Assembly (NCBI RefSeq): GCF_003334785.1
Contig: NZ_QOWV01000002.1
Source of the DNA: Escherichia coli
Lineage (GTDB): Bacteria > Pseudomonadota > Gammaproteobacteria > Enterobacterales > Enterobacteriaceae
Strand: one strand, 5' to 3'
Length of the DNA: 64,000 nt
Under the pieces are notes generated by a model, which made no database searches, was not told the DNA's origin, and saw only the letters and a program-made list of their open reading frames with translations. Shown piece by piece: positions 8,746 through 46,160 of this stretch. The position numbers and the translations under genes were made by a program. Within the stretch, counting starts at the first letter, position 1; each line of letters opens with the position of its first letter.

Positions 8746-9729
<984 letters not shown>

Positions 9730-9752
9730 GCGTTTCTGATTCATTGATTAAA

Positions 9753-9780
9753 GGCCAGGCAGTAACATTACTGACTGGCC
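9753..9780 (+). repeat. Hairpin-forming 28-bp element, upstream copy of a direct repeat flanking the BIME
   Basis: GGCCAGGCAGTAACATTACTGACTGGCC; a 26/28-identical copy lies at 9935-9962. Confidence 0.7.
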
Positions 9781-9811
9781 TCAGATTGTTGACCAAGTGC
9801 GCGTTGTACAC

Positions 9812-9909
9812 GCCGGATGCGGCGTGAACGCCTTATCCGGCCTACGAAATCGTGCTAATTCAATATATTGTGGGCTCCACGTAGGCCTGATAAGCGTAGC
9901 GCATCAGGC
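9812..9909. repeat. BIME: two inverted REP palindromic units separated by a linker
   Basis: GCCGGATGCGGCGTGAACGCCTTATCCGGCCTAC ... GTAGGCCTGATAAGCGTAGCGCATCAGGC between convergent yfeX and yfeW. Confidence 0.85.
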
Positions 9910-9934
9910 AGTTTTGCGTTTGTCAGCACTCTCA

Positions 9935-9970
9935 GACCAGCCAGTAACATTACTGACTGGCCTTTTTATT
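9935..9970 (+). terminator. Hairpin plus T-run; likely intrinsic terminator for yfeX read-through; downstream copy of the 28-bp repeat
   Basis: GACCAGCCAGTAACATTACTGACTGGCC followed by TTTTTATT; abuts the yfeW stop codon. Confidence 0.55.
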
Positions 9971-11273
9971 ACTTCTGCTTTAACGCCGCATACACCTGAT
10001 CAACTACCCAACCATAAGTTGCAATCGGCAACTGACCGCTTTCGAACATATTGGGATTCTTTTGCGGATCGGCAACCGGCGAATGTGGCTTGTTGCTTAA
10101 CATCACAATCGTCATATGATTCACCGGATCGATAACGGTCACCGTTCCGGTCCAGCCAGTGTGACCGTAGGTTTGCGGGCTTGCCAGCGTGCCAAACGTC
10201 GGCGTCATGGTGGCATTACCATTCACGCGCCAGCCGAGGCCAAAAGTGGCATCTTCCTTAGAGCTGGTGGTGAACATCTTCACCGTTTCCGCATTGAACA
10301 GCTGCACATCACCATAGCCCCCGCCGTTCAGCATCGTTTGCATTAACACCGCAATATCGCCGGTATTGGAAAACAAACCTGCGTGCCCGGAAACGCCGCC
10401 CATCGAATAAAAGGCTTTTTCATCGTGCACCTGACCCCAGAGAGTGGAGGTGCGGATATTCGGGAAATGGATCACGCCATCGCGGGTATTGCCGTTCAAT
10501 TCCGTGGCGGCAATTTGTTGCGGTTTAAAGCCTTTCAGCAGCGGGTTAAATACCGTATGTGTCAGGCCGAGCGGGCGATAAATCGACTCTTCAACATAGC
10601 GGTCAAGCGGCTGACCGGTAACCGACTCGACGATAAATCCAAGCAGCATATAATCGACATCGCTGTAGATATGTTTGCTGCCGGGCTGATATTCCAGCGG
10701 CGTGCGCTTGATCATCTCCAGCGTCTGGCCTTTATCCTGGGAATATAACGCGCCCGCGACCGCTTTATTCGGGTATTGCGGATCTGCCGGGAAACCGCCG
10801 CTGTGATGCAGCAGGTCAGAAATCCGCAGGGTGTTTTTGCCTTTAATGGTGTCATTTGGACTATCGGCAAACCCCGGAATATATTTCGCAATCCGATCGT
10901 CAGGATGCAGTTTGCCTTCGCTCATCAGCTTTTGCAGGGCGAAGTTCGTGGCGTACATTTTGGTGTTTGAGGCCAGGTCATACAGCGTCCCGGTGGTGGC
11001 TTTGACAGGCTGTTCCATCAACACGCTGCCATCGTACTTTTTCGCCGCTCCCCAGGCTTTGCGATACACAATCTGATTATCTTTAATGATCAGCAGGTTT
11101 ACGCTGGGATAACCGACATCAACTTGCTGGCTAATCCAGCGATCCATCTGGTTAAGCCGTTCGACGTTAAACCCTGCTTTCTCTGGCGAGCTTTCTGTCA
11201 GAACAGGGTATTTTGCGGCGCTGACGCTACAACTAACAGCCAGCAGAGAAAGATAGAGCATTGTCCGTTTCAT
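9969..11273 (-). CDS. yfeW: Penicillin-binding protein 4B (AmpH-like, class C beta-lactamase fold)
   Basis: 434 aa from internal ATG (MKRTMLYLSLLAVSCSVSA signal peptide). Confidence 0.9.
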   Translation of the reverse strand: MKRTMLYLSLLAVSCSVSAAKYPVLTESSPEKAGFNVERLNQMDRWISQQVDVGYPSVNLLIIKDNQIVYRKAWGAAKKYDGSVLMEQPVKATTGTLYDLASNTKMYATNFALQKLMSEGKLHPDDRIAKYIPGFADSPNDTIKGKNTLRISDLLHHSGGFPADPQYPNKAVAGALYSQDKGQTLEMIKRTPLEYQPGSKHIYSDVDYMLLGFIVESVTGQPLDRYVEESIYRPLGLTHTVFNPLLKGFKPQQIAATELNGNTRDGVIHFPNIRTSTLWGQVHDEKAFYSMGGVSGHAGLFSNTGDIAVLMQTMLNGGGYGDVQLFNAETVKMFTTSSKEDATFGLGWRVNGNATMTPTFGTLASPQTYGHTGWTGTVTVIDPVNHMTIVMLSNKPHSPVADPQKNPNMFESGQLPIATYGWVVDQVYAALKQK

Positions 11274-20703: not shown

Positions 20704-20742
20704 GGATTAATAGCATCGGAGACTGATGACAAACGCAAAACT

Positions 20743-20840
<98 letters not shown>

Positions 20841-20891
20841 ATAAACAAAGCGCACTTTTTTAACAGTTGTTGCTGCCGACAAATGCAGTAT

Positions 20892-46050: not shown

Positions 46051-46160
<110 letters not shown>

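Follow-up and report, generated by a model that had tools for sequence, protein, structure and literature searches.

A BIME-1 element between yfeX and yfeW of Escherichia coli marks the probable footprint of an insertion that duplicated a whole terminator-like hairpin

Here we analyse the yfeX-yfeW intergenic region in a 64,000-nt stretch of Escherichia coli DNA (contig NZ_QOWV01000002.1 of assembly GCF_003334785.1; hereafter the window), where a bacterial interspersed mosaic element (BIME) built on a pair of repetitive extragenic palindromic (REP) sequences stands between two near-identical copies of a hairpin. The region very probably records the entry of a BIME-1 into one terminator-like hairpin common to the convergent genes yfeX and yfeW, an event in which the whole 28-30 bp stem-loop was duplicated. 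An earlier note on this DNA had already seen that the hairpin copies bracket the REP pair between the two genes, and had left the choice between BIME insertion into a pre-existing hairpin with local duplication and a tandem dual terminator. The first of these is borne out, as E. coli strains without the BIME carry one hairpin and are 182 bp shorter; comparison of the two alleles shows that a defined element was inserted and that the target stem-loop was duplicated in full, to a length set by the structure of the target. BIME-free E. coli strains lack a second hairpin and both hairpin copies adjoin the ends of the BIME-1, the two points on which the earlier note had let its reading depend.

Results

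A direct hairpin repeat brackets the element

A repeat search of the window returned a 30-nt direct repeat at 9752-9781 and 9934-9963, identical at 28 of 30 positions, and this hairpin pair is the sole direct repeat of at least 18 nt with copies within 600 bp across the 64 kb. Its 28-nt cores, GGCCAGGCAGTAACATTACTGACTGGCC at 9753-9780 (copy 1) and GACCAGCCAGTAACATTACTGACTGGCC at 9935-9962 (copy 2), agree at 26 of 28 positions in direct orientation, just as the earlier note had counted, with differences at 9936 (G>A) and 9941 (G>C). Both are imperfect palindromes (inverted repeats I3 and I5), and the asymmetric CA loop, identical in the two, establishes that they run in the same direction. A degenerate pattern of the hairpin has no other occurrence in the window, where 0.00 chance matches were expected (100 shuffles). 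As RNA, copy 1 is predicted to fold at -20.4 kcal/mol on the plus strand and -19.7 kcal/mol on the minus strand, and copy 2 at -11.3 and -20.8 kcal/mol, respectively.

The sequences next to the two copies read as the halves of one site. Copy 1, which forms the left half of the target-site duplication, has exactly the sequence of the lone hairpin in three empty alleles (L001, L002, L004); it retains the original site's A-run upstream and runs into BIME sequence, not into a T-run. Copy 2, the right copy, differs from copy 1 by the two substitutions and keeps the original T-run, TTTTTA at 9963-9968 on the plus strand, which also follows the hairpin of the empty alleles. The T-run is thus found at the downstream copy only, 6 nt from the yfeW stop codon, in agreement with the earlier note. 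A9752 and T9781 may be counted with the duplication, which then measures 30 bp, or with the insert.

Empty alleles carry one hairpin

A 401-nt query of the region was compared with 5,426 complete E. coli genomes. The full-length filled region, of the K-12 type, is present in 1,401 of them, nearly always at 99% identity or more to the window; other E. coli genomes gave two-piece matches that span 219 or 216 bp rather than 401 bp. The deficit, which most E. coli genomes show, amounts to exactly 182 bp, equal to one hairpin plus one BIME, with a separate 3-bp difference in some lineages. In the alignment these empty alleles hold a single hairpin, AAAGGCCAGGCAGTAACATTACTGACTGGCCTTTTT, which together with its A-run and T-run reads AAAGGCCAGGCAGTAACATTACTGACTGGCCTTTTTATTA. 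A 78-nt probe for the empty allele matched 4,707 records, and 28 of 40 records sampled at a spread were single-piece empties; a further 720 genomes gave no match to the probe at the sensitivity used. Empty alleles occur in O157:H7 strains and in a BL21 derivative, while K-12 is filled.

Presence/absence polymorphism with an exact one-repeat empty site is not confined to yfeX-yfeW, as it was also found at yhaH-yhaJ and yvcK-uvrB, and all three loci lie between convergent genes. The filled allele of yhaH-yhaJ reads AAGCACCTTGTAAAAGGTGCTT, BIME-1, AAGCACCTTGTAAAAGGTGCTT, and in the common E. coli allele this hairpin occurs once and the site is shorter by 174 bp, the local period. Likewise, at yvcK-uvrB the filled allele of E. 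coli E69 (L071) has its hairpin on both sides of the BIME-1, and the empty allele of strain YL3 has a single hairpin and is shorter by 174 bp, again the local period. A K-12 derivative (L139) has only the left hairpin copy beside the BIME-1 at this last locus, the right copy having since been lost.

The insert is an ordinary BIME-1

The unit between the hairpins spans 152 nt at 9782-9933 (152-154 bp by choice of boundary) and is an ordinary BIME-1 (PMC3333891), a type of REP doublet also called RIP or RIB, for which a long linker bound by integration host factor (IHF) is described; in the usage of Bertels and Rainey it is a REPIN. On the plus strand it consists of a left terminal arm (9782-9811, beginning CAGATTGTTGACCAAGTGCGCG), a Y-type REP or palindromic unit (9812-9845; an exact match to the REP pattern and hairpin I6) oriented to end in CTAC at 9842-9845, a long (L) BIME-1 linker (9846-9880), a Z1-type REP (9881-9909) that starts with the conserved GTAG at 9881-9884 and pairs with the Y REP as inverted repeat I2, and a right terminal arm (9910-9933, ending GTTTGTCAGCACTCTC) that is the inverted-repeat partner of the left one. 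Since the arms are inverted repeats of each other, inverted repeat I1 runs for 47 nt, past the hairpins. The linker here holds a predicted IHF site, ATTCAATATATTG at 9858-9870, which matches the IHF consensus WATCAANNNNTTR at 12 of 13 positions; the window shows no enrichment of the consensus by itself, with 61 matches where 53 were expected. The same motif is present in the other BIME-1 of the window, and it formed part of the pattern with which further BIME-1 copies were retrieved.

The limits of the mobile unit can be read from a paralogue. Segment 9781-9933 recurs at fepA-entD with approximately 91% identity and without hairpins of the yfeX type, and since the homology stops at 9781 and 9933, the mobile unit is the inter-hairpin segment. 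BIME-1 is dispersed, multi-copy and extragenic, with 13-55 matching places per E. coli genome, the yfeX-yfeW copy lying at gene 3' ends, and more than 120 stretches matching the BIME-1 core pattern were retrieved from related genomes. Within the window, the Y REP pattern has two more copies (20807-20840 and 46073-46106; 0 expected by chance), of which the one at 46073-46106 has 3 mismatches to the pattern. The window's second BIME-1 (20716-20870, minus strand) has the same linker motif and REPs and a left arm that departs from the usual CAGATTG terminus; no direct repeat is obvious in its flanks, and the search for repeats of at least 18 nt found none there.

Two other descriptions of the segment were considered. 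The trinucleotide AGA at 9934-9936 might be taken as part of the element, given that CTCAGA stands at both junctions, but in other lineages the trinucleotide is AGG, and in other BIME-1 copies unrelated bases come after the terminal CTC, so this description was rejected. A search of Rfam gave sub-threshold matches only, to naRNA4 (9806-9842, minus strand; 36.3 bits against a gathering threshold of 59.5) and to ES036 (9846-9888, plus strand; 27.3 against 37.6), and these cover REP and linker sequence, not a separate RNA gene.

A survey of BIME-1 copies recovers further duplicated hairpins

The survey covered 112 distinct BIME-1 copies, each with 260 nt or more of sequence on either flank. Their sources were the window, E. 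albertii, E. whittamii, two Escherichia spp., two representative genomes labelled E. coli and three Pseudocitrobacter genomes. A copy was scored as duplicated when a direct repeat with a score of at least 12 had its left copy ending within 8 nt of the left element end and its right copy starting within 8 nt of the right one. Duplications so defined flank 26 of the 112 copies, against 11 of 5,000 mismatched flank pairs drawn from different loci (0.2%). The 26 represent 18 distinct local target sequences of 12-29 nt, for instance AAAGCCTCCGCAAGCGGAGGCTT, AAACCTCGCATCGCGAGGTTT, AGGCGGGGAATTCCCCGCCT, GGGAGCGAAAGCTCCCT and TCCCCCGCTTCTCGCGGGGGAGTTT. These targets are GC-rich, and 16 of the 18 fold as hairpins (-6.9 to -17.4 kcal/mol); identity between the flanking repeats is 0.90-1.00 in direct orientation and at least as high as in inverted orientation. 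Outside the repeats, the left flanks of the 18 targets are A-rich (0.56) and the right flanks T-rich (0.61), as bidirectional terminators predict. The length of the duplication, rather than being a fixed one set by a transposase, varies from 12 to 29 nt and tracks the local stem-loop. The non-duplicated insert, tabulated for 18 insertions, is confined to 149-157 bp and mostly starts with cagattgctgacaaag and ends with gtttgtcatcagtctc.

The association with hairpins extends beyond copies with a recognisable repeat. A hairpin of -8 kcal/mol or lower adjoins at least one element end in 80 of the 112 copies, compared with 56 of 224 control windows placed 110 nt further out. Fourteen further copies have differing yet clearly related hairpins on the two sides, which are probably older, diverged duplications. 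In diverged pairs (L018, L029, L039, L078, L111, L115 and others) the changes lie mainly in loops and on both sides of the stems, with strong folds retained; this strong folding suggests that both copies were kept as hairpins after insertion. Exact matches to the BIME-1 core were also seen on short contigs assigned to a Bacteroides metagenome-assembled genome (MAG), Desulfosporosinus sp. OT, a Collinsella MAG and Methylobacterium frigidaeris (L036, L037, L091, L092); these non-enterobacterial matches, two of them on contigs of only 261-262 bp, are likely enterobacterial contamination.

The insertion is probably old, and the locus appears to expand and contract

A scan of species-representative genomes with the BIME-1 core pattern yielded the same locus in other Escherichia. 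At yfeX-yfeW, E. whittamii has the order hairpin-BIME-hairpin, Escherichia sp. E1V33 (L084) has three hairpins and two BIMEs, and in Escherichia sp. MOD1-EC7003 the array reaches eight hairpins and seven BIMEs (L118 11475-12413, continuing into L119); Tandem Repeats Finder, applied to the part of this last array held in one locus, reports a period of 182 with 96% matches. One BIME-1 variant, with ...GCGTTGTACAC... and ...GTCAGCAC..., is common to these lineages at yfeX-yfeW, and this sharing points to a single old insertion with later expansion and contraction at the locus. A recent insertion in the K-12 lineage is ruled out by the presence of the same BIME-1 variant and hairpin in E. whittamii and the two other Escherichia lineages. 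The right junction of these lineages reads ...TC AGGCCAG..., so that the A at 9936 arose by substitution in the K-12-type allele; the G/C difference at 9759/9941, which empty alleles show as well, is an older polymorphism. Some of the E. coli empty sites may accordingly be secondary collapses between hairpin copies and others never filled. The evidence for the footprint is independent of which of the two applies to any given strain.

Salmonella and Citrobacter were tried as outgroups and set aside, as yfeX there precedes ucpA and a different terminator, CCCCGC...GCGGGGATTTTTTT; without the murR-murQ-murP-yfeW block at yfeX, these genera are uninformative on the hairpin. Of the comparison across strains and genera that the earlier note had proposed, the search for an E. 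coli empty site with one hairpin therefore succeeded, and the part that relied on Salmonella did not help. In E. coli, murR-murQ-murP-yfeW separates yfeX from ucpA and cysP, and in Salmonella and Citrobacter (L008-L011) ucpA comes directly after yfeX; in one genome labelled Salmonella enterica, yfeX is followed by a periplasmic solute-binding gene (SBP_bac_1/SBP_bac_11), probably cysP. Salmonella enterica (L010 2900-3030) has a REP pair between the yfeX stop and a terminator, CCCCGCCTCCGCGGGGATTTTTTT, and Citrobacter freundii (L011 2900-2950) has the terminator alone. The Salmonella pair beside the yfeX terminator looks like a one-sided arrangement in another genus.

Predicted consequences for transcription termination

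The hairpin of the empty allele, with AAA before it and TTTTT after it, is predicted to fold at -20.8 kcal/mol on the plus strand and -20.7 kcal/mol on the minus strand. The sequence that comes next is UUUUUAUU on the yfeX strand and UUUAAUCAA on the yfeW strand. The hairpin looks like a bidirectional intrinsic terminator; termination at the yfeX-yfeW hairpins is a prediction. In the filled allele, the yfeX transcript would run through copy 1, which lacks a U-run, and through the BIME-1 before reaching copy 2, which has a U-run and a weaker fold (-11.3 kcal/mol), the weakness on this strand being due to the two substitutions. By the same fold predictions, the yfeW transcript meets copy 2 first, here a perfect 13-bp stem without a U-run, and later copy 1, followed by UUUAAU. 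The insertion would thus have split a single hairpin such that each gene now meets a hairpin without a U-run first and one with a U-run after the BIME-1.

The flanking genes

The genes on either side are convergent. yfeX, encoding a porphyrinogen peroxidase, is the open reading frame at 8830-9729 on the plus strand, also annotated by RefSeq on identical DNA; its stop codon (9727-9729) is separated from hairpin copy 1 by 23 nt, and Dyp-peroxidase Pfam domains were found in YfeX homologues. yfeW (pbp4B, encoding penicillin-binding protein 4B) occupies 9969-11273 on the minus strand (1,305 nt in RefSeq) with its stop codon at 9969-9971. In E. coli NCTC9966 (L007 488-752) the annotation treats pbp4B as a pseudogene with an internal stop; the allele of this strain is filled and has a single substitution in its Z1 REP. 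The protein cluster of YfeX at 90% identity also lists CysM, CysA and pyridoxal kinase entries, which looks like an inconsistency of the cluster table, not biology.

Discussion

How a whole stem-loop might be duplicated

The footprint could arise if the two strands of the target were cut at the two feet of an extruded hairpin or cruciform, in which case the stagger equals the length of the palindrome; the BIME-1 would be joined in and repair synthesis would copy the hairpin on both sides. The candidate enzyme for the cuts is the REP-associated Y1 transposase (TnpA_REP, also RAYT), which in vitro binds REPs and transfers strands; its cuts fall at C|T, with GGCC|T favoured, in DNA that must be single-stranded, and up to hundreds of nucleotides from the REP (PMC3333891). 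The empty yfeX site has TGGCC|T at the 3' hairpin foot on both strands. Under C|T cuts the strands of the insert would begin with T (top TCAGATTGTTGAC, bottom TGAGAGTGCTGAC), for a duplication of 28 bp and an insert of 154 bp; the A and T on either side allow a 30-bp duplication with a 152-bp insert just as well. Once in place, the hairpin copies may serve as direct repeats of 28-30 bp between which the 182-bp unit could expand or contract by unequal exchange or slippage, and this would yield the 0, 1, 2 or 7 BIMEs of different Escherichia lineages.

A number of observations weigh against insertion with duplication, or against this version of it. In the survey, 86 of the 112 BIME-1 copies have no repeat by our definition and 39 have a strong hairpin on one side only; such one-sided or repeat-free copies could reflect decay, as at yvcK-uvrB of K-12, or insertion that does not always duplicate. 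IS200/IS605-family transposases of the HUH/Y1 type insert without duplicating their target (PMC3333891), and C|T nicks at the 3' feet would leave 3' overhangs, giving hairpin-BIME and BIME-hairpin daughters unless there is a further step. By our own reading of the table, only about 11 of the 18 targets have a left copy with CT at its 3' foot, and CT is expected there anyway because a GC stem precedes a T-run. Polarity within E. coli is ambiguous, since the insertion is common to other Escherichia. A source copy was sought in genomes without the yfeX insertion, and the best paralogue reached 88-91% (at fepA-entD and, in one genome, at yqjF-yqjG); no near-identical source was found, and the best paralogue is only about 91% identical, as a single old insertion followed by expansion and contraction would explain. 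As for the terminator character of the target, a simple terminator scan called neither the filled nor the empty hairpins, missing that of the empty allele because of its internal mismatch and short loop, and a search of published papers and their supplements for RNA 3'-end mapping of yfeX/yfeW found none.

A strict C|T rule at both junctions, tried across loci, does not hold, with agreement at about 11 of 18. Y1 chemistry without duplication, the 3' overhangs and the partial occurrence of CT together mean that the enzyme and the geometry of the cuts are held less firmly than the footprint: our confidence in the former is low to moderate, and in the footprint itself high.

Other routes to the same arrangement

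Could insertion and duplication be real, with the cuts owed instead to a host pathway, such as a structure-specific nuclease acting on an extruded palindrome or stalled fork, and with repair capturing the BIME-1? It is possible, if rather unlikely, and would accommodate a CT that is not universal at the hairpin foot (about 11 of 18), a duplication that tracks the secondary structure of the target and not its sequence, and a Y1 chemistry that predicts no duplication at all. Against it stand the precise, conserved termini and the 149-157 bp inserts at independent loci, as precise termini and a narrow range of insert length imply defined excision of an element rather than random filler DNA; furthermore, TnpA_REP is the only enzyme known to bind and cut BIMEs (PMC3333891; PMC8266576). 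We consider it improbable that the BIME-1 inserted beside the hairpin without duplication and that a later tandem duplication or unequal exchange, with partial loss, gave the hairpin-BIME-hairpin order. Tandem arrays of the 182-bp unit do exist, one-sided hairpin arrangements are common (39/112) and Y1 transposases normally insert without duplication, all of which such a two-step history would suit. However, 18 independent loci share the same end state, in which the repeat is confined to the stem-loop and adjoins both conserved termini, and each would need a matching second event with its breakpoints at the hairpin edge. Arrays, moreover, always end in a hairpin, as growth from hairpin-BIME-hairpin predicts.

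The two remaining explanations dispense with duplication of the target altogether, and we give either of them very little credence. That each hairpin copy folds stably on both strands, and that convergent genes could in principle own one terminator each, would fit a BIME that landed between two existing hairpins, the tandem dual terminator of the earlier note. Such an origin is contradicted by the BIME-free strains, which have one hairpin and are shorter by one hairpin plus one BIME, by the likewise single-hairpin empty sites of yhaH-yhaJ and yvcK-uvrB, and by the A-run and T-run, which stand only on the outer sides of the hairpin pair; the dual hairpin is a consequence of the insertion. It is hardly more credible that the hairpin is part of the mobile element and moves along with it, even if hairpin and BIME do amplify jointly as a 182-bp unit at yfeX-yfeW, for the flanking hairpins are specific to their loci, with 18 distinct sequences that each match their own empty site where one was found. 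The fepA-entD copy, too, is without such hairpins, and no other place in the window has the yfeX hairpin pattern. We therefore return to insertion of the BIME-1 into one hairpin, with duplication of that hairpin, as the reading that the yfeX-yfeW region very probably calls for.

A tentative target rule and its precedents

Taken more generally, the survey raises the possibility of a target rule for BIME-1 or REPIN elements, by which they insert at terminator-type hairpins, with cuts at both feet and duplication of the whole hairpin whatever its length. We advance this rule tentatively, with somewhat less than even confidence. REP sequences and BIMEs, known for about four decades, account for approximately 1% of the E. 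coli genome. The duplication of REPINs is estimated at about 1e-8 per generation, so that it is almost never caught happening, and published accounts leave the mechanism of REP dissemination unresolved. A target-site signature for insertion of REPs, BIMEs or REPINs is not described in PMC3333891, PMC8266576, PMC3116915, PMC3337134, PMC2817692, PMC3184786, PMC3733652, PMC2884548, PMC8049555 or three bioRxiv preprints, although an earlier description in older literature is possible. Structure-determined target duplication by a known element family has apparently not been described.

The yfeX-yfeW element agrees with published BIME-1 in its inverted Y and Z1 REPs, CTAC/GTAG tags, IHF-like L linker, inverted arms and dispersal at 3' ends. 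Published BIME-1 elements are described as single copies (PMC3333891) and without a target-site signature, whereas the element here, single in the window, is present twice in E1V33 and seven times in MOD1-EC7003 at the same locus, with the hairpin as spacer, and is bracketed by a duplicated target hairpin. For tandem REPIN arrays including their flanks, "no mechanistic or evolutionary explanation" has been offered (PMC3337134). The nearest precedent is that of REP dimers inside palindromes regarded as their target, namely GTAG-23 of Thermomicrobium roseum and CGTC-1 of Halothiobacillus neapolitanus (Di Nocera et al. 2013, PMC3733652). Those dimers sit within a palindrome that is itself a repeated consensus; unlike them, each BIME-1 target is a unique local hairpin, found whole and in direct orientation on both sides.

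Among other mobile elements, the Y1 HUH enzymes of the IS200/IS605 family and TnpA_REP/RAYT share with the present system the recognition of folded single-strand hairpins, and the empty yfeX site offers TGGCC|T at its feet to the GGCC|T preference of TnpA_REP, with CT at the foot not universal among the targets; the IS200/IS605 family inserts without target duplication, whereas here a duplication of 12-29 bp corresponds to the target stem-loop. Bacterial miniature inverted-repeat transposable elements (MITEs) moved by DDE transposases, such as ERIC/IRU and Correia, are likewise short and non-autonomous, with terminal inverted repeats, direct target duplication and presence/absence polymorphism. 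Target duplications of the DDE type are short and of a fixed length set by the enzyme, as those of MITEs are generally known to be, and those of BIME-1, at 12-29 bp, track the local hairpin instead. Class C group II introns and the insertion sequences IS1397 (cited in PMC3333891) and ISKpn1 (the latter two in REP loops) use extragenic stem-loops as safe landing sites. They share stem-loop targeting with BIME-1 but are not known to duplicate the whole hairpin, and IS1397 enters the REP itself.

Implications for BIME biology

The footprint at yfeX-yfeW constrains the still-unexplained spread of BIME-1 and provides target substrates for in vitro work with TnpA_REP. It also lets insertions be recognised and dated in pan-genomes, and it offers a possible reason why BIME-1 lies at transcription-unit 3' ends and a simple origin for tandem BIME arrays. 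With regard to gene expression, insertion is predicted to turn one bidirectional terminator into two half-terminators with a REP doublet between them, and natural strains are at hand in which termination may be compared, K-12 being filled and the BL21 derivative and O157:H7 empty. Should the general target rule hold, it would represent the first target-site signature for REP dissemination, and hairpins other than REPs would have to be substrates, on both strands, of the REP transposase or a partner. It would further explain both the accumulation of REPs at gene 3' ends and the start of tandem BIME arrays.

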